Below the pieces are notes generated by a model that ran no database searches, was not told the origin of the DNA, and worked only from the letters and a program-made list of their open reading frames with translations. From an uncultured Candidatus Saccharibacteria bacterium (GTDB taxonomy: Bacteria > Patescibacteriota > Minisyncoccia > Phycocordibacterales > UBA5272), in the NCBI GenBank assembly GCA_964457775.1, contig CAYWEW010000001.1:17783-81782 (forward strand): a stretch of DNA of 64,000 bases. The letters are read 5' to 3'. Of the stretch, positions 2,030 to 62,485 are shown piece after piece. Position 1 is the stretch's first letter. Every line of letters starts with the position of its first letter. The position numbers and the translations under genes are program-made.

Positions 2030-4744
2030 TTATAAAGAGTATTTCTTCATTATTTCCGCTGTTACTTCGTCCACTGGACGGCCGTAGGTTAAGTAACTTA
2101 ACTCTTTTAATGCGTCAATCTTTGTAATGTCACCACGGGGAGGAAATGGTACGAACATATCAAATGGTTTCTTTGGGTCACCATTTGCTAGTATTTTTAT
2201 ATATGCATTATGATTAGATATTTTCATTATATCTCCCGCATTAAATGTTGGTTCAAACTTTGACTCAAGATACTTAGCATCTTCTGGAGAAACTCTATGT
2301 ATTGCCATAGATCCAACGTTACCGAATACTGCACCTTTGATGTCTTCGGTAAGTTGTCCAATATATTGATGAGCAACAGTGAGCGACAATCTATACTTAC
2401 GGGCCTCTGACAGAATAGACGCAATTGCTGGAGTGGTAACGTTTTGGAATTCATCAATATACAAAAAAAAGTCTGGCCGAATATTAGTGTCAACTCTTCC
2501 AAGTGCTGCTTGTGCGAATTTTCCAACAATAATTAGACCGAGTAACTCTGCATTCTTATCACCAAGCTTACCCTTTGCAAGATTAACAAGGAGTATCTTT
2601 TTTGTATCCATTATTTCTCTAAAATTAAACGCGGACTTTTCTTGGGCAATAATTGGACGCATAATGTCGTTTGACATAAACACATCGAATTTACTATTAA
2701 CATATTGTGTCCAATTTTGAAGACCTTGATCCCCTGTTGTCTTCTCCGCATTTTGCCAAAATTGCAAAATGAGAGGATTCTTGCATTTTGATAATTTATA
2801 ATCACGAAAATCTTTATCAGAAAACACACGTGAAATATCAAGTAGAGTGTTACCTGATTCTGGATGCTCCATAACTAACAATGTGGCATTACGGAAATAT
2901 TGCTCAAATCCTGGGCCTCCAGTTGCCTTCATATCAAACAATTTATCAAATATACCAAGAAGTTCATTAACCACAAAAGTCTTCGTTTCTGGATGATTTC
3001 TGTCATATTCAAGCATATTTAGCCCCATAGGACGTGGCATATACGCAGGATCAAAGTAAATCACATCTTTAGCCCTTTCAGCTGGAATATTCGCGAGAAT
3101 ATCTACAATATCCGTACCGTGTGGGTCGATGAAACAACAGCCTTCCCCATTATTAATATCCTGAATTATCATTCGCTTCAAAAAAACGGTCTTACCAGTA
3201 CCCGTCTGCCCTATAACATACATATGCCTCATACGGTCTTCTTTTCCGAAATGAATTTCTGTTTCTAGTCCTCTGTTTTTATTAACTCCAAGAATTATTC
3301 CTTCTGAACATAAATCAACTGGTGCTGGTGATTGTGTATAAGAGCTCTCTCTAACGTTTCCAACATCTTTTGACTGCATTGGAAAATGGAATATTGATGC
3401 AAGTTCTGAAAGATTAAGTGGGTAACTCTCATCCTCATTCCACAAACGATAAGAATAACGATGAAGTAATGCTTTTTGTTTTCTTCCTTCTACTTCTTCC
3501 CATTTTATACTGTTACCATTTATTTCAGCGAATTGTGAAAAAGATGCTTCCAATTCTCCACGTATTGCCTGAGCACGAGAAAGTGAAGATGCTGACGAAA
3601 CGATACGAATATTTGTTTCTATAATTGTCTTTGAAAGTTTTTCTTGGATAAGTTTGGTTGCACTTTCATCTATGTGTGTTGTTTTCTTCTCTTTATCTTT
3701 TTCAATTTCTTCTTTTGATTTTCCACCTGAAAACATTTCTCCTAGAAGATGAAGTGACTCCTTGAGTATGCTTTGTTTATCAATTACACGCTTAAGTGTC
3801 TCTCCTTTTCTTAAATCTTCTAACATTTCTCCGAATCGCTTCGCGAACACATCTCCTGCAGGACGAATTAATATTTGCAAAGCAAGACCTTCATCATCTT
3901 TTGCCATTTTGGTAAAAGAAGCGATTATAACCGTCATTGGGTCACCTTCCATTGTTGCATAAGTTTTAATCGGCAGAACTGGGTGCGTCATATGAGTCGC
4001 ATATGAGCAAGCGGTGATAGCATGGTCGTGGAAAATATTATAATCTTCTTTGCATTCTTTTACCTGTGCAGTCGGGAAAATACCTAAAACTACTTTTTCA
4101 AAAAGTGGGGCATAGTCTATATGAACTGCGCAATAAAATACTGCCGTTGTAACACCGTTTGCAACTGCAAGTTCAAGAGAATAATAATTCTTCTCTTTAT
4201 TCGTTGCATCAGATGCCAGTGCTTGCATAGAAGCATACCACTGCTCCATTAGCCCCATCATTTCTTTTACTTGTTTTGTTTGACCATCCCCTGCATCAGG
4301 CAATACTATTTCGAACAATTTCATGTGGAGAGCTTTCCATTCATCCTTTGATACATCATTTTTTAATTCATGTCCTGAAATTAAATATTGAACAACAAAT
4401 CTTTCAAAATCATCTTCCACTTGTGGGCTATTCAAATCTTCTGCTACTTTAAAAGCATTTTTTATACCCTTTTCAGCCATAACCTGAGAAAGCATACGGA
4501 CTTGAGCGTCTGTTTCCTTTGGTGCTAACCATTCAAGCAATCGGTGCTGTTCACCCGCAGAAACATGGGCTGTTGGTGCAATAATTTTTTCTAAAGGAGT
4601 TTCTTTATAATCACGCACAACTTCATGAGCTCTATCTTTTTCTGTAAATCTACCTTCGAAACCTTTTGCTCTTTCCATTTTATCTGCAACTTGAGAACGA
4701 AGATAAGCAATCTCTTCTTCAGGAGTTGTAAATTGAGTATTCAT
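2030..4744 (-). CDS. FtsK/HerA/TraG-superfamily P-loop ATPase, VirD4/TraD (type IV coupling protein)-like but without N-terminal TM segments
   Basis: 904 aa. Walker A IGQTGTGKT is followed by CFIDPHGTDIV. Walker B FFLYIDEFQNV is followed by EARKYRLSLTVAHQYIGQL, resembling the TraG-D_C RK..(Q..QL) motif. The N-terminal ~450 aa is a soluble helical region. Confidence 0.65.
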   Translation of the reverse strand: MNTQFTTPEEEIAYLRSQVADKMERAKGFEGRFTEKDRAHEVVRDYKETPLEKIIAPTAHVSAGEQHRLLEWLAPKETDAQVRMLSQVMAEKGIKNAFKVAEDLNSPQVEDDFERFVVQYLISGHELKNDVSKDEWKALHMKLFEIVLPDAGDGQTKQVKEMMGLMEQWYASMQALASDATNKEKNYYSLELAVANGVTTAVFYCAVHIDYAPLFEKVVLGIFPTAQVKECKEDYNIFHDHAITACSYATHMTHPVLPIKTYATMEGDPMTVIIASFTKMAKDDEGLALQILIRPAGDVFAKRFGEMLEDLRKGETLKRVIDKQSILKESLHLLGEMFSGGKSKEEIEKDKEKKTTHIDESATKLIQEKLSKTIIETNIRIVSSASSLSRAQAIRGELEASFSQFAEINGNSIKWEEVEGRKQKALLHRYSYRLWNEDESYPLNLSELASIFHFPMQSKDVGNVRESSYTQSPAPVDLCSEGIILGVNKNRGLETEIHFGKEDRMRHMYVIGQTGTGKTVFLKRMIIQDINNGEGCCFIDPHGTDIVDILANIPAERAKDVIYFDPAYMPRPMGLNMLEYDRNHPETKTFVVNELLGIFDKLFDMKATGGPGFEQYFRNATLLVMEHPESGNTLLDISRVFSDKDFRDYKLSKCKNPLILQFWQNAEKTTGDQGLQNWTQYVNSKFDVFMSNDIMRPIIAQEKSAFNFREIMDTKKILLVNLAKGKLGDKNAELLGLIIVGKFAQAALGRVDTNIRPDFFLYIDEFQNVTTPAIASILSEARKYRLSLTVAHQYIGQLTEDIKGAVFGNVGSMAIHRVSPEDAKYLESKFEPTFNAGDIMKISNHNAYIKILANGDPKKPFDMFVPFPPRGDITKIDALKELSYLTYGRPVDEVTAEIMKKYSL

Positions 4745-4785
4745 AGGTACAGTATATAGTTACTGGTTACTAGTTACTAGTGGAT

Positions 4786-4816
4786 ACAAAATCGGCCACT
4801 TCGTGGCCGATTTTGT
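4786..4816. terminator. Rho-independent terminator-like hairpin (13-bp perfect stem)
   Basis: acaaaatcggccac-ttcg-gtggccgattttgt, flanked by T/A runs, lies between two minus-strand genes. Confidence 0.55.
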
Positions 4817-7420: not shown

Positions 7421-7561
7421 CTAACAATACTACCATAAAACATATACTTGTAACTAGTTATGCTTCCCTTGATAATAACCTTATTCTCTTTCTAATTCCT
7501 TGGAACAGTAGCACTAATATCTAAAATTGTTTTAAATTTATTAATCATAATTAGTTAATTA

Positions 7562-13613: not shown

Positions 13614-13650
13614 AAAAGCGACATCTTCGATGTCGCTTTTTGTTGTATTA
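13614..13650. terminator. Terminator hairpin; member of a recurring AAAAGCGACATCTT-n-GATGTCGCTTTT family
   Basis: aaaagcgacatc-ttcg-gatgtcgcttttt. Near-identical copies occur at 17309-17340 and 58440-58470. Confidence 0.55.
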
Positions 13651-13683
13651 GCTAAAACCTAATTGCTAATAACTAAAGACTGT

Positions 13684-26552: not shown

Positions 26553-28487
26553 TTACTTTGCATTCTCTTTATCTTCTTGATAAGAGGCATATATACTACG
26601 CGCAAGTATGAAGATGATAAATATTATAGCAATGAGAGCTAACCATTCAACAAGATTGTTTGGCATAAAACCTCTCTCACTGCCTGCTCCAATTACTTTC
26701 TTAGCTCCAGTATCTTTATTACTGATACTGTCATTAGGAGTAATTGAACCTACAACATAAGCAGTTACCTCGTCCTGTACAGATGTATTTGGAACCGTAT
26801 AAATTACATATGCTGTAGTTACTATTGATTTACCAATCGTAGCATCTTGTGCAATTTTGCCTGAGATAGCTACAACTCCTTCTGCGTGAGCATCAAGTGT
26901 GTCTTGATTGATTGTTAATATATGTGTTGCTTCATCATATACACCAGAAGTTGCGAGATCGAATTTTATTTCTGCAGGAATTAGAACTTTTACAACTACA
27001 CCTTTAAGACGTGAGTCTGTAGCATTCTTGTAAGTAATTCTATATGACACTGGAGAATTTGCAGAAAGATTTCCTTCACTTTTTTCTACTCTAAGAGTTA
27101 CAAGCTTTTCACCTTGATTAAGCATTGATGCTTGTGTTTCACTTTTTGCATAGAAACTAGAACCATCTGTACATGTTACGAGAGTTTGTTTCTTAACAAC
27201 TTCTGTAACTACTTTCTTTGTAACAGTCTTCTTTGTTGTTGTGACAGGCTTTACATATGTGGTTACAGCATTCTTTGTGACAAAACTCACTATTTCACCT
27301 TTTACAATTCCATATTGATTCTGCATTACAGCACGACAGTAATAACGTGTTGATGGCTTAAGATTTGCAAGTACATTTGAAAATGGTGCAGATGATGAAT
27401 TACCAATTGAAGCAGTTGCTGTTGTTCGACCAAGACTTGATGTTTCACCATATTCGAACCATCCAGTTGAAGGTGCTCCGTTTGCAATAAGCCCAATACC
27501 GTTACAACGACCACTTGTGTTTGTGATTTGAGTTACAACTGAAGTAACAACATTGTTGAATTTAACGGTTGGTAAAGGAGTAACTGTAGGATATCTAACT
27601 ATTGGTTGAGTATTGTAGTAATTCGAACCACTATAATATGTTGTTGGTTGTGTGTAATTATTAGTATTGTAATTTACAGGACAAAGTGATGAATAAGAAA
27701 CGATTGTTCCATTCCAACATGTGTAATTTGTATTTACTGTATTAATTGTACATACACCATTAACTAATGTTGAGCCAGATGGACATGAAGTATTTGTAAT
27801 TTGGCAAGTACCATTTATAAGAGTTGACCCTGATGGACAAGATACTGAATTAATCTGACATGTTCCGTTTACTAATGTTGAGCCTGATGGACAAGATACA
27901 TTATTATTGTTTGTATATCCACCGTAAGTGTATCCATAACTACCAACTGTTGGTGCGTAATTATAACCACCATAGTTATAACCAGCTTGACCATAACTAA
28001 TTCCAATTTGATATGAAGGTGAACTGTATGATGAAACACCGTATGTTGCTGATGAAACATCAGATGTTGTGTATGGTGGGTAGTTTACACCAGTTTCATA
28101 AGTAGGATATGTTGTGTCTGTGTTATAAGTTGGGTAGGTAGTACCACCACTGTACGATGTTGAGTACGTAGTACCGGTGTCATATATTGGATATGTAGTT
28201 CCTCCACTGTATACAGGATATGTAGTTCCCCCACTGTATGTAGTACCAGTGTCATATATTGGATATGTAGTTCCTCCACTGTATACAGGATATGTGGTTC
28301 CCCCACTGTATGTAGTACCAGTATCGTATATTGGATAATTTGTTGTTCCGCCGGAATATGAACTTACTGAACCAACAAACCCATCATCAAATTGAAGTTG
28401 AGCAAAGGCAATAGAAGTACCTTGAAGAAGCAGAACTCCTGCAAGAAAAACAGATACAATGTTTTGTTTTTTCATGATTGTTTTCAT
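26553..28487 (-). CDS. Repetitive cell-surface protein (644 aa) with signal peptide, tandem peptide repeats and C-terminal TM anchor
   Basis: Signal MKTIMKKQNIVSVFLAGVLLLQGTSIAFA. About three 24-aa YSGGTTYP(V/I)Y repeats, three 18-aa SCPSGSTLxNGTCQI repeats, C-terminal LVEWLALIAIIFIIFILA. Confidence 0.65.
   Translation of the reverse strand: MKTIMKKQNIVSVFLAGVLLLQGTSIAFAQLQFDDGFVGSVSSYSGGTTNYPIYDTGTTYSGGTTYPVYSGGTTYPIYDTGTTYSGGTTYPVYSGGTTYPIYDTGTTYSTSYSGGTTYPTYNTDTTYPTYETGVNYPPYTTSDVSSATYGVSSYSSPSYQIGISYGQAGYNYGGYNYAPTVGSYGYTYGGYTNNNNVSCPSGSTLVNGTCQINSVSCPSGSTLINGTCQITNTSCPSGSTLVNGVCTINTVNTNYTCWNGTIVSYSSLCPVNYNTNNYTQPTTYYSGSNYYNTQPIVRYPTVTPLPTVKFNNVVTSVVTQITNTSGRCNGIGLIANGAPSTGWFEYGETSSLGRTTATASIGNSSSAPFSNVLANLKPSTRYYCRAVMQNQYGIVKGEIVSFVTKNAVTTYVKPVTTTKKTVTKKVVTEVVKKQTLVTCTDGSSFYAKSETQASMLNQGEKLVTLRVEKSEGNLSANSPVSYRITYKNATDSRLKGVVVKVLIPAEIKFDLATSGVYDEATHILTINQDTLDAHAEGVVAISGKIAQDATIGKSIVTTAYVIYTVPNTSVQDEVTAYVVGSITPNDSISNKDTGAKKVIGAGSERGFMPNNLVEWLALIAIIFIIFILARSIYASYQEDKENAK
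27757..27920. repeat. Three tandem 54-bp repeats inside the surface-protein gene (encode the SCPSGSTLxNGTCQI units)
   Basis: Units begin at 27757, 27811 and 27865 with about 80% identity. Confidence 0.7.
28100..28345. repeat. About 3.4 tandem 72-bp repeats inside the surface-protein gene (encode the YSGGTTYP units)
   Basis: Near-identical units start at 28179 and 28251 (gtcatatattggatatgtagttcctccactgtatacaggatatgt...). Confidence 0.7.
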
Positions 28488-43039: not shown

Positions 43040-43720
43040 ATGAAGATAAACCCTGTTCCAATTATCGCAATTGATGGGACTTCCTCCTCTGGAAAAGGTA
43101 CTATTGCTTACAAACTTGCAGAATATTTTGGTTATAATTATTTAAATGCTGGTGCACTTTATCGCCTATCTGCTTATACCGCACTTGCGAATAATGTTAA
43201 CCTTTCACACAAGGAAGCGCTGATTCAAATCGCCTCTCAGCTTCGTCCACATTTTAAAGGAAAGCAAATTATTGTTGACGGAAAAGACGTGTGGCCTATC
43301 ATTTCCACCCAAGAATACGGTAATCATGCATCAGTAATAAGTCCAATTAAAGAGCTCAGAGAAGCTCTTTTTTATGCCCAAAGAAAAATGATTGCTCCCC
43401 CTGGCCTGGTCGCTGAAGGGAGAGATATGTGTAACCATGTTTTTACTGATGCAAAAGTAAAATTTTACCTTAATGCGGATGTAACGGTGCGAGCAGAACG
43501 TAGATTAATTGATGAGCAAAAGAAAGGTACAGGTAAAACACTTGAAATGATAGAAAAAGAATTAGAATTGCGTGACCATCGTGATATGACTCGTGAATTA
43601 GGAAGATTATATCCAGCAGATGATGCTTGTATTATTGATACAGGAAATAAAACAATTGAAGAAGTGTTGGAAGAATGTATTGATTGGTGCGAGGTACAAG
43701 GTATAGTCGTTAGTCGTTAG
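43040..43720 (+). CDS. cmk: Cytidylate kinase
   Basis: IIAIDGTSSSGKGTIAYKLAEYFGYNYLNAGALYR P-loop/NMP-binding signature; 226 aa. Confidence 0.85.
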   Translation: MKINPVPIIAIDGTSSSGKGTIAYKLAEYFGYNYLNAGALYRLSAYTALANNVNLSHKEALIQIASQLRPHFKGKQIIVDGKDVWPIISTQEYGNHASVISPIKELREALFYAQRKMIAPPGLVAEGRDMCNHVFTDAKVKFYLNADVTVRAERRLIDEQKKGTGKTLEMIEKELELRDHRDMTRELGRLYPADDACIIDTGNKTIEEVLEECIDWCEVQGIVVSR

Positions 43721-43744
43721 TCGTTAGGAAAATTATACAGAACA

Positions 43745-51529: not shown

Positions 51530-51606
51530 ATCATTCACCAAAAAAAGGCAATCGCAAGATTGCCTTTTTGTATTTTAACTACACACTACCAACTACGTAC
51601 TATTCT

Positions 51607-53517
51607 TTATACTACTTCCACTTTCTTCTTCACTGGTATACCATGTAGAGTTAAAATCTTTTCAAACTCCTCTCTTTCAATATTTTCTACACGCATAAGT
51701 TCTTCTGCGATAGCAACTAGCACTGTACGTTTATCAAGAATAATATTTCTAGCTCTCTGCCATGCTTCATCTAAGATACGCTTCACTTCGCCATCGATTT
51801 TTTCTCCATACGCTTCACTATATTCTTTGCTGTAGAAAACACTACGTTGTTCTCCTTCTGGTACATAAGTCACCGGACCAAGTGTACTCATACCATAACG
51901 CGTAACCATAGCGCGAGCCATCGCTGTTGCTACTTGCAAATCATTTGATGGGCCAGTTGTGATATCACCAAATATTTCTTTCTCTGTAACATAACCACCG
52001 AGTGACATCGCGATATCATCCAAGAATGTCGCACGACTCATGAGTCGTCTTTCATCAAGCGGAAGCTTAAGTGTATACCCTCCAGCGTGTCCTCGAGCAA
52101 TAATAGATATCTTATGTATTGGGTCAGCATCAGGTAAACATGATGCAACAAGAGCGTGTCCTGCTTCATGATATGCAGTTATTTTCTTTTCTTGTGGAGT
52201 AAGCACATGACTCTTTCTTTCGGGACCGAGCATAACCTTTTCAATAGAGCGTATGAGGTCATACTGTGCGACACTCTTTCTTTCTTCCCGTGCTGCTAGG
52301 ATTGCTGATTCATTCATAAGTGAATAAAGATCTGCACCAGAAAATCCTGGAGTGCGTTCTGCGATGACTTTCAAATTAACATCTTCTGCGAGTGGTTTTA
52401 ATTTTACATGCACACCAAGTATTGCTTCACGATCATTTCTGTCTGGCAAATCAAGTGTGACTCGTCTATCGAATCTTCCTGGACGAAGAAGTGCTTGATC
52501 AAGTACATCCGGTCTGTTAGTTGCTGCCATAATAATCAAATTCATAGTTGGTTCGAATCCATCCATCTCAACCAGTATTTGATTAAGTGTTTGCTCACGT
52601 CCTTCACCTTGACCACCGAGTGACGGTGAACGTGTGCGTCCAACTGCATCTATTTCATCAATAAAAATAATTGCTGGTGCCGCTTTCTTTGCCATGTCAA
52701 ATAAATCACGCACACGAGACGCTCCTACACCGACGAACATCTCTTCGAATTCACTTCCAGATAAATGGAAGAATGGTACTGCTGCCTCACCTGCCACAGC
52801 ACGAGCAAGCATTGTCTTTCCTGTTCCTGGTGCCCCCATCAAAAGAACCCCTTTTGGAATTTGTGCGCCTATGTCTGTAAACTTTTGTGGAGCTCGAAGG
52901 AATTCTACGATTTCTAATAATTCTTCTTTAGCTTCTTTTGCACCTGCAACGTCTTTGAACAGTATTTTTTCTTTCGTGTCGTCTGGATAAATAACTTTTG
53001 CACGTGATTGTCCAAAAGAAAGAGCTTGAACATTTGCTCCTTTGATTCCACGAGCTAGCCACCAAATCATGAATCCTAAGAAAAGAATTGGAAGTATGAT
53101 TGGAATAAGTGAACCCCAAAATGACAACCCTCTCTCAGACGAAACGGTAATCGTAGTTGTTGCGAGTGTTGAAGTGCTAACTCCGTATATTTTGAGTGCT
53201 TCAAGAATTGAAACCCCTGTTTCTTTTTTACTTAAAACTTTTGTTTTATCTATTTTTTCTCCTGTAAGGGCATCTCCTTCTACAGTGATTGCTATTATTT
53301 GTTGTTGATTAACAAGCTCTGCAAATGAAGAAAGTGGAATAATTGGTGTGGCTTTCTTTTCAGAAAAAATAGAGTACCCCCAAACTAGGAACATAAAAAT
53401 AATAAAGGAACCGAACAACTGCTGAGAAAAACTCTGCACCTTTTTTGCAGTTGTAACTTTTTCCCCATCCTTTTTTGTTATTTTTCCTATTTTTGGCATT
53501 TTCATCTTTTTCATCAA
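51607..53517 (-). CDS. ftsH: ATP-dependent zinc metalloprotease FtsH
   Basis: N-terminal TMs, AAA module [18 protein letters not shown]...DEIDAVGR, protease HEAGHAL motif. Confidence 0.9.
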
Positions 53518-54151: not shown

Positions 54152-54538
54152 GGGGGTGACTTTGGCTTCGATACTAAGAATATGATGTATGTGCTGTATC
54201 GAGACTGCTCTTACACTCGTAAACGTTTTGAGCAACCATGTTGCAAACTCAACTGGCAAGGCTATCCGTTCGCCATACGCGTTCGGACTAGTTCCAGCAT
54301 TCGTCTAATTTAGACCTATCTGGTGTCCTTCTTTTTCGTATCTACGGAAAAAGTCTGGGCAATATAACAGAAGATGTAGGTTATCTTGTTGCATAGCAAC
54401 CTAACCGAAACAAACATGCTATACATTCATTGTTTTCGTTTGTTTTCTATAATGAATACGAACACATGAAGCAAACTACATACAGTAGATTCATGCACCA
54501 TACATTATTACACGCGGGTTCAATTCCCGCCACCTCCA
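54152..54538 (+). ncRNA. ssrA: tmRNA (ssrA), one-piece, ~387 nt, CCA not encoded
   Basis: 5' GGGGGTGACTTTGGCTTCGAT and 3' CACGCGGGTTCAATTCCCGCCACCTCCA match the conserved tmRNA tRNA-like ends; acceptor strands pair. Candidate tag ORF GCA AAC ... GTC TAA at 54243-54308 (ANSTGKAIRSPYAFGLVPAFV). Confidence 0.7.
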
Positions 54539-54592
54539 CAAATACAAAATACTCCACCCCTCTGGTGGAGTATTTTGTATTTGTGGAGGTGG
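54530..54592 (+). terminator. 29-bp perfect hairpin that includes the tmRNA 3' acceptor strand
   Basis: CCACCTCCACAAATACAAAATACTCCACC-cctct-GGTGGAGTATTTTGTATTTGTGGAGGTGG. Confidence 0.5.
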
Positions 54593-57781: not shown

Positions 57782-57970
57782 ATGAAGACAAACAAATCAT
57801 TCTTAAAACGTCTCCGTGTTACCAAAAATGGTAAAATCTTAGCTCGTAAGCCAGGACTTAACCATTTCAATGCAAAAGCATCACGATCAAAGCAACTTGC
57901 TGGCAAAAGAGCTCAGGATTTTGCTATGACAGGAAAGGAAAAGTCACGTTTTCTTCCAGGAATGTTCTAA
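57782..57970 (+). CDS. rpmI: 50S ribosomal protein L35
   Basis: MKTNKSFLKRLRVTKNGKILARKPGLNHFNAK... Confidence 0.85.
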   Translation: MKTNKSFLKRLRVTKNGKILARKPGLNHFNAKASRSKQLAGKRAQDFAMTGKEKSRFLPGMF

Positions 57971-58006
57971 TCCTTTAAGACTCATTAATTTATTTAATCA
58001 ACCACT

Positions 58007-58613: not shown

Positions 58614-59186
58614 CTAAAGTCTAAGTTCCCTTTCGCCGTTAAGCTCTTGCTTTCTTACCATCTTAATCAACTTTTCTATCATTATTTTTGGGTCTTTTTC
58701 AAAAATAACATTTGGATTTGTTCGATCACTATTTTTTATGATATTTTGAATCACTTCATCTGTCGCCCACTCTCCAACAAGTACTCCAAGAGGCATATTA
58801 GCTTCCCAAGCCACTGTAAACTCATGAATAGTACCAATACGACCACAACCAATTACAACCGCATCTGACGAGCGTATAAGCATGAGGTCGCGTCCAGGAA
58901 AACCGAACCCTGTGTATACGACGGTGTCCATAGCCTTAAGTGGTAATCTGTACACCTCCACATGTTCTTTCTTGCTTGCTGCAGGAGAAAGACCAAAAGA
59001 AAATCCCCCTGCCTCCTTTGCCCCTTCAGCTGCATACATAGGAAAACCGCTTGTTGCACCTGTAACAATCTGACATCCTTGTCTAGCAATCTCACGACCA
59101 ATTTCTTTAGCAATTGGTATTACAGATGGTCCACAATGTGCTATTTCAGCAGCGCCTGAGACACTGATAGTAATTCGTTGTTTCAT
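58614..59186 (-). CDS. LOG-family / TIGR00725-type Rossmann-fold nucleotide-binding protein (lysine-decarboxylase-like)
   Basis: GATSGFPMYAAEGA and VVIGCGRIGTIHEF match the LOG GGGxGxM / PGGxGTxEE motifs. Confidence 0.55.
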   Translation of the reverse strand: MKQRITISVSGAAEIAHCGPSVIPIAKEIGREIARQGCQIVTGATSGFPMYAAEGAKEAGGFSFGLSPAASKKEHVEVYRLPLKAMDTVVYTGFGFPGRDLMLIRSSDAVVIGCGRIGTIHEFTVAWEANMPLGVLVGEWATDEVIQNIIKNSDRTNPNVIFEKDPKIMIEKLIKMVRKQELNGERELRL

Positions 59187-59225
59187 TTTACTAGTATATA
59201 GTTACTGGTTGATAGTTACTAGTGG
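59187..59225 (-). promoter_or_regulatory. Promoter cassette: CCACTA + three tandem heptamers + TATATACT + 6 nt + ATG (likely short-leader or leaderless mRNA)
   Basis: Minus strand reads CCACTAGTAACTATCAACCAGTAACTATATACTagtaaaATG, 31/33 identical to the cassette at 4751-4783. Confidence 0.45.
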
Positions 59226-60604: not shown

Positions 60605-60664
60605 GAGAATAGTTGGTGGTTATTAGTTACTGGTTCTTAGTTTAATACTAAAAATTAAAAATAC

Positions 60665-61021
60665 CTACTTACGAACAAAAAGGTAGGCAATACTCATACC
60701 AATAAACCCATTAATTAAATCTTTTATTGTATCTACCCAACCTCCCCAGTCTTGAGCAAACATTACGTCGTGTATATATTCATAAGCTTCCCATGTAACT
60801 GCGATCATGATGTAAGTCAAGTATAATTTCTTATATGAGACAGAATTTCCTTTATATGAAAGAATTGCCCCTGTAAGTGATGCAACTCCGAAACCTCCCA
60901 TAATATGCATCGGAATATCTAACCACCATAATTCATAATATAAATATGAAGGATCAAAAACGAATTTTGAAAGACAAAACAATATAATAAGATATGATGC
61001 TGAAATAATGATATGTTTCAT
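60665..61021 (-). CDS. Small 4-TM membrane protein, possibly VanZ-like
   Basis: 118 aa; C-terminal DTIKDLINGFIGMSIAYLF. Assignment is weak. Confidence 0.4.
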   Translation of the reverse strand: MKHIIISASYLIILFCLSKFVFDPSYLYYELWWLDIPMHIMGGFGVASLTGAILSYKGNSVSYKKLYLTYIMIAVTWEAYEYIHDVMFAQDWGGWVDTIKDLINGFIGMSIAYLFVRK

Positions 61022-61121
61022 AATTACAGTATATAGCGTTTAGTGTTTAGCGTATAGTGGGGGACATATTCATAAATTTGTTTTATAAAAACAAATGAGG
61101 TCAAGCAAATTATGCTCAACC

Positions 61122-61664
61122 TCATGTAATACGAAACTGTTTTGATTTTATTTTGTGAATCCATGATTCCACCCCTTTTGATGTGAGTAGAGTCCGATAA
61201 TGCCTTGTTCTCTTGGTCGTATGAAGGGCTATCTTTTTCTTTCTTGCGAAGCTACTCCACTTTTTCCTTTTCTGATTTGCTGTTAGAAAAACCCATTCCA
61301 AGTGAGAAGGATTGAAGCACAGAGTCCTTTTGCAAAGATGATCGATACTTAGCCCACAAGCAGAGTATGCAGCATACAACTCGAAAAAAGTTTCCTTATC
61401 CTGTTTGTTATAAAAATCAAAACCTGGACGAAGAATAAGTAACTCCTCTAGAACTTTTGCCACTCTATGTACTGGGAATTTAAGTGACCTCCCTTTGTAG
61501 GTTAAATTAATTCGCCCATAAGAACCATCCTCACCACGTGTGGAAACTGTTACTTTTTGGCAATAACCAGTCCAAAGAGCGCAGTCCCCTTCTCTTTTTG
61601 AATGAGTGCACAATCGATCTACTAAACTAATGTATTTTCCCAAAATTTTCCTTTCGTTAATCAA
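61122..61664 (-). CDS. HNH homing-type endonuclease (HNH_3 family), free-standing
   Basis: CGLSIDHLCKRTLCFNPSHLEWV is the His-Me finger; upstream beta-hairpin region GYCQKVTVSTRGEDGSYGRINL. Confidence 0.6.
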   Translation of the reverse strand: MINERKILGKYISLVDRLCTHSKREGDCALWTGYCQKVTVSTRGEDGSYGRINLTYKGRSLKFPVHRVAKVLEELLILRPGFDFYNKQDKETFFELYAAYSACGLSIDHLCKRTLCFNPSHLEWVFLTANQKRKKWSSFARKKKIALHTTKRTRHYRTLLTSKGVESWIHKIKSKQFRIT

Positions 61665-61916
61665 GTTATAAAAACAACAATGTTAAAAGGATGGTAACAA
61701 AAACAGCCACTTTGTGCAATTAGAAATTAAACAAATTAAAAATCCCTTTATAAATAAAGAGATTTTTAATTTGGGAACTTGGGGCATCTTCCTGATGTTT
61801 TATGTCAGGTGGGTGGGAAACGAATAGGACCACGGTCCAGTTCTCAATATTCCATAACCCAAAGATGCATTATCCAGAAAAATACCTAAGTTCCCTATCT
61901 AGTATTATATTCCTGC

Positions 61917-62485
61917 TATAAAAAAAGTAAAGGGAAAGAAAATATCCATGCTTAAGCATGGATATTTTCTTTAATGGAGGTACTTCGTATCATGTATCTG
62001 TTCGATTGTCGATACGTGGGTAGAGAATCGTAGGTCCTCGAACTCGTACTAATATCTCATCACCCTTGATACTTGATTAGGCAGATACATATTCTTGAAG
62101 TACCTATACTCATTCTATTCCCGCCGCAAAAAATTGCAATATCCCTCCAAGCGATTTTGCGGTGGATTAGGTGGATATGTAATTAGCATGTAACTTGTAG
62201 CGTGTAGCGTGTAGCGTGTAGCGTGTAGTAAAATTATAGAAAAGAAAATACCCGATGACACTCATCGGGTATTTTCTATAGTGGAGGTACTTACGATTAT
62301 TGTTTGTATTATAAGATATGAGAGAGACATGCGTCACGAACGACTATGCACTATCTGACATCCTATAATCCTTCGAAGGTAAACAAACAAATATATCAAA
62401 GCACCTATGACCATTATAGCCCTCAAAAAAAACCATGCAAGTCTAAATTTTCATGTGGATTAGGTGGACAGTGGGGACAACAAAT
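61917..62485 (-). repeat. Two tandem diverged ~250-nt non-coding units, each ending (minus strand) in a hairpin + U-tract; candidate paralogous sRNAs
   Basis: Shared blocks include GAAAATAYCC...GGRTATTTTC hairpins (61936-61967, 62249-62281), GGAGGTACTT and TGGATTAGGTGGA. No ORF of 60 aa or more lies in 61665-62596. Confidence 0.4.
62195..62229. repeat. Heptamer microsatellite (GTGTAGC)x4.5
   Basis: tgtagcgtgtagcgtgtagcgtgtagcgtgtagta. Confidence 0.8.

Follow-up and report, generated by a model that had tools for sequence, protein, structure and literature searches.

Which signal starts transcription of genes whose ATG lies 6 nt behind a TATACT hexamer, when the DNA upstream of that hexamer is made of tandem heptamers? 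The question is raised by a 64,000-nt stretch of an uncultured Candidatus Saccharibacteria bacterium (assembly GCA_964457775.1, contig CAYWEW010000001.1, positions 17,783 to 81,782), hereafter called the window. The arrangement CCACTA-(N4CYA)3-TATACT-N6-ATG (Y, pyrimidine) occurs three times in the window, which has a G+C content of 37%. The original prediction on this DNA had described these three cassettes, with 31 of 33 positions identical between two of them, as promoters of leaderless mRNAs. The cassettes and their identity are confirmed, far above chance expectation, and the analysis reported here concerns what the heptamers contribute. Coordinates refer to the minus strand unless stated otherwise.

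Cassette 1 (4783..4751) is composed of CCACTA (4783-4778), GTAACTA (4777-4771), GTAACCA (4770-4764), GTAACTA (4763-4757) and the -10 hexamer TATACT (4756-4751), its CYA triplets beginning at -36, -29, -22 and -15 relative to the A of the ATG. The 6-nt discriminator gtacct (4750-4745) leads to the ATG (4744-4742) of a TraG/VirD4-like ATPase of 904 amino acids (aa; open reading frame (ORF) 2030-4744), and transcription would start at the A at 4744. The N-terminus of this ATPase is conserved in its orthologues at two of the loci fetched from other genomes (L005 and L037; fetched loci are numbered with an L). A distance of 4 nt separates cassette 1 from the intrinsic terminator of the upstream gene, which is perfect, bidirectional and read from the sequence as AAAATCGGCCAC-gaa-GTGGCCGATTTT (4788..4814). 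Cassette 2 (59225..59193; CCACTA GTAACTA TCAACCA GTAACTA TATACT) begins 5 nt past the stop codon of the MBL gene and differs from cassette 1 by 2 mismatches in 33, the genes downstream of the two being unrelated. Its discriminator agtaaa and the ATG occupy 59184..59192, with the A of the ATG at 59186 and a spacing of 6 nt, and the gene starting there encodes a SLOG/LDcluster4 (TIGR00725-type) protein of 190 aa. Cassette 3 (61060..61028; CCACTA TACGCTA AACACTA AACGCTA TATACT) keeps the geometry of the other two with different variable bases. It is followed by gtaatt and the ATG (61019..61027, A of the ATG at 61021) of a membrane protein of 118 aa, for which the record gives DUF2238 (PF09997) instead of the VanZ-like family first proposed. 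The intrinsic terminator of the upstream HNH-like gene (61095..61125) lies about 35 nt upstream of cassette 3.

Three counts were compared with their expectation in the window. The 33-mer with up to 3 mismatches gave 2 matches versus 0.00 in shuffled sequences, CTATAHACT-N6-ATG gave 3 matches versus 0.04 expected, and runs of at least 4 phased CYA heptads gave 11 overlapping matches at 8 loci versus 0.07 expected. No Rfam family matched at or near the cassettes, and folding at the cassettes revealed no RNA structure beyond that of shuffles (z-scores of -0.5 to +0.6). The window's own cassettes displayed no strain-level variation, the only other contigs found being 100% identical.

With the A of the ATG taken as the presumed start, TATACT qualifies as a sigma-70 -10 hexamer, having A in position 2 and T in position 6, and stands 6 nt before the ATG in all three cassettes. 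A TANNNT hexamer about 5-9 nt from the start codon, with no room for a Shine-Dalgarno (SD) sequence, is the arrangement of a leaderless gene; the distance is 6 nt in the window and 6-9 nt in 59 of the 72 instances considered below. The other usual elements are missing. A consensus sigma-70 scan called no TTGACA-like -35 at 16-18 bp in any of the three cassettes, and the best -35 match averages 2.9/6 in the array class versus 2.5/6 at arbitrary control sites. The TGn of an extended -10 was found in 0 of 138 array promoters among the matches listed, positions -15/-14 being C/T. In E. coli, a -10 with neither a -35 nor a TGn is insufficient as a promoter. By this knowledge the array must contribute, most simply as a positive promoter element, and since terminators abut cassettes 1 and 3 there is no room for a promoter further upstream. 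Elsewhere in the window, many genes lack a Shine-Dalgarno sequence and show a TGnTATAAT-type hexamer 6-10 nt ahead of the start codon; a minority have GGAGG leaders.

The cassette was then searched for in a collection holding one genome per prokaryotic species, using the pattern CCACTA-N4-CYA-N4-CYA-N4-CTATATACT. This yielded 69 matches at 65 loci, where we estimate about 1 by chance. By record title, 43 loci belong to lineages of the Candidate Phyla Radiation (CPR), 8 to unnamed bacteria and 14 to other phyla, the CPR labels comprising Saccharibacteria, Paceibacterota, Parcubacteria, Nomurabacteria, Kaiser-, Colwell- and Taylorbacteria, Gracilibacteria and Peribacteria. When the window's 3 cassettes are added to the 69 matches, an ORF of 40 aa or more starts with an ATG 6-9 nt past TATACT in 59 of 72 instances, at 6 nt in 32 of them, 7 nt in 10, 8 nt in 9 and 9 nt in 8. 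The cassette geometry recurs in at least about 190 independent instances outside the window, and arrays of at least 4 units number 145 versus 0.4 expected in 549 kb. The start codons of cassette genes are conserved in orthologues; as these are 56-93% identical, many matches come from one related clade. Proteins at this level of identity nevertheless carry differing record labels (Saccharibacteria, Paceibacterota, Nomurabacteria, Gracilibacteria; loci L001-L065), so that taxonomic statements resting on labels are unreliable. The named members of the 90% cluster of the window's SLOG protein are Candidatus Paceibacterota. Outside the CPR labels, the cassette-to-ATG geometry was found at two Chloroflexi-labelled loci (L023 and L029) and one Treponema-labelled locus (L026), and at another locus labelled Treponema (L045) the cassette is followed by a 21-nt leader with AAGGAGG. 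These non-CPR-labelled cassettes may be binning errors. The gene behind the cassette encodes a response regulator in L023 and L029, 6-7 nt from TATACT to ATG, and ParA in L026.

The downstream genes do not form a functionally related set but fall into more than 40 unrelated housekeeping families. Recurrent families in the genome scan are SLOG (9 times), methyltransferase (6 times), a 430-aa membrane protein (5 times) and TraG/HerA-like ATPases (5 times), and GAPDH, transketolase, FMN reductase, DUF2238, SOD, TrxB, GatC, RuvX and PriA were also found. A class that drives so many housekeeping genes would be a basal type of promoter rather than an operator belonging to a gene-specific regulator. 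The initial suggestion that the heptamers are iterated binding sites defining a regulon is not supported: the targets are unrelated, only CTA is conserved, the remaining bases track genome GC, and CCACTA is a lineage flavour.

To delimit the conserved element, metagenomes were scanned with CTA-N4-CYA-N4-CTATATACT-N6-ATG, a pattern that leaves the fourth triplet free; at least 119 loci were retrieved, with G+C of 0.30-0.58. Among the matches listed there were 104 unique promoters, in which the unforced positions -36, -35 and -34 are C in 100, T in 101 and A in 98, respectively, while positions -43 to -41 are not conserved. Pooling 138 pattern-selected promoters among the matches listed, CYA was found at -36 in 130, at -43 in 16 and at -50 in 7. 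The unforced fourth triplet and the lack of conservation at -43 define the element as four CTA at -36, -29, -22 and -15, TATACT at -12..-7 and ATG at +1. The triplets (-36..-34, -29..-27, -22..-20 and -15..-13) are spaced by exactly 7 bp, the array ends sharply at -40, and CT(A/G) at -8..-6 of the -10 unit keeps the triplet phase. Among the matches listed, about half have an A in front of each triplet, and half have a G behind the first one; the CCAC before the first triplet is a flavour of the lineage and not a general element. The 6-nt discriminator is G-poor, and its -1 position is a pyrimidine in 88% (G in 1%), versus 52% pyrimidine in SD-led genes. A pyrimidine before the A of the ATG is what the known pyrimidine-purine preference at start sites would give. 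Genes downstream in the metagenome set include, among the matches listed, RuvA, RuvX, YebC, Pth, RpiB, YchF, SerS, MutM, DnaX, GltX and AroC.

Leaderless starts were also compared in 1.28 Mb of fetched contigs and fall into two classes. The first class has TGn plus TAnnnT, usually of the form xxxAAT, with essentially no -35 information (78 sites from the window and L001-L187). The second has an array plus TA(T/A)ACT. In the same contigs the arrays never accompany TATAAT or TGn, and forward arrays lie upstream of 4 of 147 starts of the first class and 2 of 212 SD-led starts. The tRNA-Ile gene of the window has TGaTATAGT 10 nt upstream.

From these data we infer that the three cassettes probably represent a core promoter class for leaderless mRNAs, in which phased CTA triplets replace the -35 and TGn elements. 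That they are leaderless promoters with TATACT 6 nt from the ATG, as originally predicted, is well supported and very likely, given the roughly 190 recurrences, the pyrimidine at -1 in 88%, the terminators abutting cassettes 1 and 3 and the many TGnTATAAT genes of the window. The best explanation at hand is that the transcription machinery reads the triplets as a positive basal element, and its chances appear slightly better than even. The phased triplets would then supply the strength that a promoter normally draws from a -35 or a TGn; either the RNA polymerase holoenzyme of these bacteria would read them, or a general DNA-binding factor, present throughout the lineage, would do so and recruit it. 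CCACTA would be the outermost heptad in the flavour of this lineage. The N4 bases between triplets, as the sequence statistics show, are not individually selected: they follow genome composition, and unit turnover (slippage or conversion) keeps them similar inside each cassette.

The way the arrays evolve bears on this last point. Per unit only (A)CTA is conserved, the other bases varying between sites even within one genome. The N4 bases are identical at 2.55 of 4 positions within a cassette versus 1.35 of 4 between GC-matched cassettes, and their G+C rises from 0.26 to 0.60 with that of the contig. Orthologous cassettes swap all three N4 in parallel, as in GTAA/GTAA/GTAA versus GTGG/ATGG/GTAG before one and the same ATPase or in GTAA-type versus GTCC-type cassettes before VirD4-like and SLOG genes; contigs encoding an identical SLOG protein have entirely different cassettes. 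Cassettes within a single genome tend to share their flavour. This pattern is, judging from these comparisons, the signature of unit turnover by slippage or conversion with selection on the CTA triplets and on the number of units. In the near-identical contigs L188 and L196, which encode the same SLOG protein, a flanking array at ~2290-2330 reads (TAGCTCG)x3 and (TAGCTCG)x2, respectively; this difference in copy number is direct evidence of slippage in the flanking array. Core cassettes, in turn, are identical across eight strain-level contigs, and four units are present in 130 of the 138 promoters among the matches listed. Repeat-number polymorphism between close strains, as phase-variable promoters would display, was not found in the promoters; only flanking perfect arrays vary. 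For (CTGTCTA)n, L031 carries 3 copies and L062 carries 6. Long perfect N4CTA arrays were also observed: (AGTTCTA)x16 in L002 (6269-6380), (CAGTCTA)x8 in L061 (200-260), (CACGCTA)x7 in L031 (1-50), and arrays of 12-24 units in Bacteroidales/Paludibacter contigs (L046, L034). The view of the cassette as a portable promoter module held in part. Near-identical cassettes 1 and 2 stand before non-homologous genes, as expected of a mobile promoter, and cassettes of the same genome are alike in their variable bases. Yet the identity stops at the cassette edges, no mobile-element features were seen, and orthologues keep the position of the cassette while its variable bases are replaced.

Arrays also occur in the window outside the three cassettes, some of them already pointed out in the original prediction as partial or antisense versions. 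The one upstream of the MBL/beta-CASP gene (60605..60645, core 60640..60610) is a genuine array of five phased units, TAAACTA AGAACCA GTAACTA ATAACCA CCAACTA, followed by ttctc and the ATG. Its triplets run from -36 to -8 in the phase to the ATG seen in the cassettes, the last CTA lying 5 nt before the ATG, but it has no TATACT, nor any TAnnnT hexamer at -12..-7. The array antisense to the 3' end of cmk (43700..43727) reads TTTCCTA (ACGACTA)x3, then TACCTT and gtacct; on the plus strand it is (TAGTCGT)x3 and includes the cmk stop codon. It adjoins a terminator and no ORF follows. The array at 62184..62228, first described as spanning 62189-62235, reads TTTACTA (CACGCTA)x4 CAAGTTA CATGCTA and shares its CACGCTA unit with L031. 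It is flanked by a terminator on one side and by the sigma-70-type promoter of a small non-coding unit on the other, is not fused to a -10 element, and again no ORF follows. These two arrays are genuine but do not precede ORFs. The adk site (7447-7462), in contrast to the arrays, is a chance resemblance with a single CTA and no phasing, adk having instead an extended -10, TGgTAGTAT-N6-ATG. Two arrays are new to this analysis. The first, at 13648..13675 (plus strand; the minus strand reads TAGTTAT TAGCAAT TAGGTTT TAGCTAA), lies 8 nt past the stop codon of a gene for a 1189-aa protein with a bidirectional terminator directly next to it. The second, at 51575..51602 (plus strand; TTAACTA CACACTA CCAACTA CGTACTA), has a bidirectional terminator on one side and, on the other, the stop codon of the convergent gene 51607-53517. 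Together with the cmk array they make up the window's 3 reverse-sense arrays, which read (TAG-N4)4 on the strand of the gene and are located at or after stop codons beside bidirectional terminators; 54 such cases were found in the fetched loci. They could be antisense promoters, relics or factor-binding sites.

Several observations weigh against a basal promoter element made of triplets. The +1 at the A of the ATG is deduced from sequence, and our search patterns fixed TATACT together with two or three triplets, so that evidence comes only from the positions left unfixed. A period of 7 bp places the triplets on different faces of the helix, and to our knowledge the sigma-70 holoenzyme does not read a promoter spacer in this way. 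Arrays of the same length (4-5 units) are also found reversed, right after stop codons, and none of 41 tRNA genes has an upstream array. Eleven arrays without a TAnnnT unit, including that of the window's MBL gene, share the geometry of last CTA, 5 nt and ATG. At four related loci, arrays of five N4CTA units and no terminator lie between rpmI and rplT (L016 4259-4300, L079 2095-2135, L131 700-740 and L191 ~3655-3705, the last on the minus strand); they fill almost the entire intergenic region, contain no TAnnnT and leave 4-5 nt to the ATG of rplT. In the window itself, the rpmI-rplT junction (~57960-58006) has no array. A role in promoters fits such TATA-less arrays only if a canonical -10 is dispensable, and these arrays, the reverse arrays and the tRNA genes together keep alive a role at the RNA level or that of a DNA-binding factor acting beyond initiation. 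No sigma factor gene lies near the arrays of the window, and the single RpoD-like gene, in L077, is uninformative. A bolder proposal would accommodate the TATA-less cases: the 7-bp-phased CTA array could be an unrecognised basal initiation element of Patescibacteria, and possibly of Chloroflexota relatives, its triplets being recognised by some trait of RNA polymerase or sigma peculiar to the lineage, or else by a general initiation factor, and the start being fixed 5 nt past the last CTA even without a canonical -10, as at rplT and MBL. We regard it as a conjecture with a rather low chance of being right; if true, bacteria would possess a second means of setting the transcription start of leaderless genes.

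Two alternative explanations concern the function of the array. The heptads could form the operator array of a global DNA-binding protein of ribbon-helix-helix-like type, which would occupy one unit per 7 bp and repress or gate an overlapping -10-only promoter, TATACT(A) serving both as -10 and as heptad. Such a protein would account for contiguous 7-bp units with a conserved core of 3-4 bp, (A)CTA, and free flanks, for a -10 that is always of the xxxACT type and so extends the heptad pattern, and for arrays of the same size at non-promoter sites. There is a precedent in the omega protein of pSM19035, which binds contiguous promoter heptads (PMC9499535). However, a derepressed promoter without a -35 and a TGn should have very little strength, whereas this class drives core housekeeping genes. 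The array moreover keeps a single register and a single length with respect to the -10, and forward arrays are rare (4/147) with the other promoter class, neither of which an independent operator would require. No candidate protein was identified, and we judge an operator unlikely. Alternatively the array could work at the RNA level: (NNNNCUA)n, placed 5 nt before an AUG, would be a signal for translation initiation or processing, through ribosome recruitment or through trimming by an RNase to a 5'-terminal AUG. The arrays that keep the 5-nt register before the ATG without a -10 unit, those between rpmI and rplT without a terminator, the absence of arrays from tRNA genes and the position of cassette 2 directly after the MBL stop codon all agree with this, and the literature holds an analogue in TAACTGA repeats that end beside start codons without a ribosome-binding site (RBS) (PMC4679880). 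The arrays of cassettes 1 and 3, however, cannot lie in a 5' untranslated region (UTR), because terminators abut them. The perfect TATACT at -12..-7 and the pyrimidine at -1 followed by a purine at +1 are transcription signals, the 21-nt AAGGAGG leader of L045 shows that the register to the ATG is not obligatory, and the folding scores gave no RNA structure. An RNA signal appears to us even less likely than an operator.

Two others concern the origin of the repeats. The near-identity of cassettes 1 and 2 could result from copy-and-paste of a portable promoter, by propagation or gene conversion, rather than from selection on each base. The order of the variable bases is indeed common to cassettes of the same genome (cassettes 1 and 2 of the window; L010 and L028; L001, L031 and L051 of one metagenome-assembled genome (MAG)), these bases are otherwise unconstrained, and loci with identical SLOG proteins carry completely different cassettes. 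But the resemblance goes no further than the exact edges of the cassettes, neither a transposase nor an inverted repeat or target duplication was seen, the identical 33-mer also precedes other genes in other genomes (L002, L036, L051), and orthologous genes keep the position of the cassette across species. Copying seems doubtful on this balance though not far-fetched. It would in any case explain similarity and not function, and it is compatible with phased triplets acting as a promoter element. The arrays could lastly be neutral microsatellites, or phase-variable contingency repeats that alter promoter spacing by slippage. Long perfect arrays do lie nearby (16 units in L002, 8 in L061, 7 in L031), the flanking array differs between the near-identical strains L188 (3 units) and L196 (2), and (CTGTCTA)n differs between L031 (3 copies) and L062 (6). 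Against this, the number of units is fixed with a sharp edge at -40 at more than 100 loci, the units of core cassettes are imperfect, CTA is ~95% conserved next to bases that are free, and core cassettes are identical in the eight strain-level contigs. We consider the microsatellite explanation highly improbable.

Further candidates were tried and rejected. The resemblance of TnTCCACT to TTATCCACA suggested a DnaA box, but box position 9 has T instead of A, position 3 is unconstrained and CCAC is not general. An extracytoplasmic-function (ECF)-type promoter (AAC-N16-CGT) was considered because GTAAC-N16-TATACT fits; it does so in the window only, AAC being absent from the other flavours. A wall of stop codons, with TAG in all three frames of the opposite strand, is not the main function: the unforced C at -36 is present in 100 of 104 promoters among the matches listed, CCA (= TGG) is tolerated, and such a wall would predict TTA or TCA in place of CTA, which is near-exclusive. 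An RNA module of array plus terminator is not general, as terminators lie upstream of 14% of array promoters versus 11% of TGn promoters. A promoter for RNA genes was discarded on account of the tRNA count, and a phage origin because the sole viral match is a simple TATAC repeat.

Other features of the window were recorded in the course of the analysis. The region 61935-62480 contains two paralogous small non-coding units of ~190 nt that are 75% identical. They share the upstream box TCCACCTAATCCAC and a conserved 3' motif, AAGTACCTCCA, and each has its own sigma-70-like promoter (TTGCAT/TTGCAA-N16-TATAAT/TAGAAT) and intrinsic terminator. Rfam gives no match above threshold for these units, the weak ones including RsaE/RoxS; through their CCUCC motif they could pair with Shine-Dalgarno sequences. 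Another non-coding unit, the third (61732-61931, promoter TTTACT-N16-TATAAT), is bounded by terminators, lies upstream of the HNH-like gene and is conserved in L191 (150-470), where the array GTAACTA GTAACCA TCAACTA TAAACTA precedes it. Beside the cassette cluster, a 180-aa ORF with a TTG start (61122-61664) gives a weak match to His-Me finger proteins of homing-endonuclease type. A 644-aa ORF (26553-28487), probably a repetitive surface protein, contains large in-frame tandem repeats at 27756-28337 with periods of 54, 27 and 72 nt, the last at 95% identity over 2.4 copies. A tmRNA gene was found at 54152-54541 on the plus strand (89 bits).

Patescibacteria make up a large share of bacterial diversity and their transcription initiation is almost uncharacterised. 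In related bacteria the same layout precedes more than 100 unrelated housekeeping genes, which points to a promoter architecture undescribed as far as a limited literature search can tell. The signature of four CTA, TATACT and ATG would improve the annotation of start codons and operons in thousands of MAGs, and the cassettes would offer ready-made strong native promoters for the new genetic systems of Saccharibacteria. They also define a biochemical question, namely what reads a 7-bp-phased triplet, as no known contact pattern of sigma-70 explains such reading. Finally, they are a clean case of concerted evolution in a 28-bp regulatory element, the triplets being frozen across genomes of 31-58% GC while the bases between them turn over together.

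How does this architecture compare with known systems? A full-text literature search, limited and hence no proof of novelty, found no description of it, and within that search none of the systems compared joins a constant number of four phased triplets to a -10 hexamer. Leaderless promoters with a -10 motif beside the ORF are known in Actinobacteria. The extended -10 (TGnTATAAT), which the same genomes use for other leaderless genes, likewise adds an element directly upstream of the -10, but here -15/-14 are C/T and not T/G and the added element spans 28 bp with four repeats. SARP-type activators of Streptomyces bind heptameric direct repeats upstream of the -10 that replace the -35 and recruit RNA polymerase. 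The resemblance is in direct heptamer repeats just upstream of the -10 that substitute for the -35 hexamer; SARP repeats, unlike ours, recur every 11 bp on one face of the helix, keep a fixed sequence and serve pathway-specific targets. Read in reverse complement the array is (TAG-N4)n, as is the HutP site (UAG-N4)3 of the Bacillus hut mRNA; HutP acts on RNA at one operon, and the sense strand before our genes reads N4-CTA. The metboxes of MetJ are contiguous 8-bp units in promoter regions with one dimer per unit. The heptads of omega (WATCACW) are conserved at 5 of 7 positions, occur in both orientations in 7-10 copies, bind one dimer per unit and serve repression and partition of plasmid genes. 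Contiguous, spacerless 7-bp units in promoter regions are common to the omega (ribbon-helix-helix) system of plasmid pSM19035 and the present arrays (PMC9499535).

Two systems come closer in their position relative to the gene. In Deinococcus-Thermus, promoters described as a '-10 motif adjacent to ORFs' give leaderless mRNAs (PMC12340547). As in our cassettes, a TANNNT a few bases before the start codon serves there as -10, with a defined spacing to the ORF and neither 5' UTR nor Shine-Dalgarno sequence; the parts of that work available to us describe no set of four 7-bp-phased CTA triplets, whereas here TA(T/A)ACT is fused in phase to the array (PMC12340547). The other system is that of the intergenic TAACTGA heptamer repeats of Beggiatoaceae, cyanobacteria and Bacteroidetes, which occur in 2-6 direct copies and for which a post-transcriptional role was proposed in Beggiatoaceae (MacGregor 2015, PMC4679880); other heptamers were described in Nostoc (bioRxiv 10.1101/2022.06.06.494920). 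Both those repeats and ours are tandem heptamers that point toward, or end beside, start codons lacking an RBS, with unrelated genes downstream (PMC4679880), and forward arrays in our data lie directly upstream of such start codons. In another register (GTAACTA)n is (TAACTAG)n, which is close to TAACTGA, though TAACTGA itself does not occur among the N4CTA units, which use many different N4. In the TAACTGA repeats the whole heptamer is fixed, the copy number varies, there is no -10 element and most arrays end 1 nt from the start codon (PMC4679880), whereas in the arrays described here only CTA is fixed, four units are joined to a -10 unit, and the array abuts TATACT.

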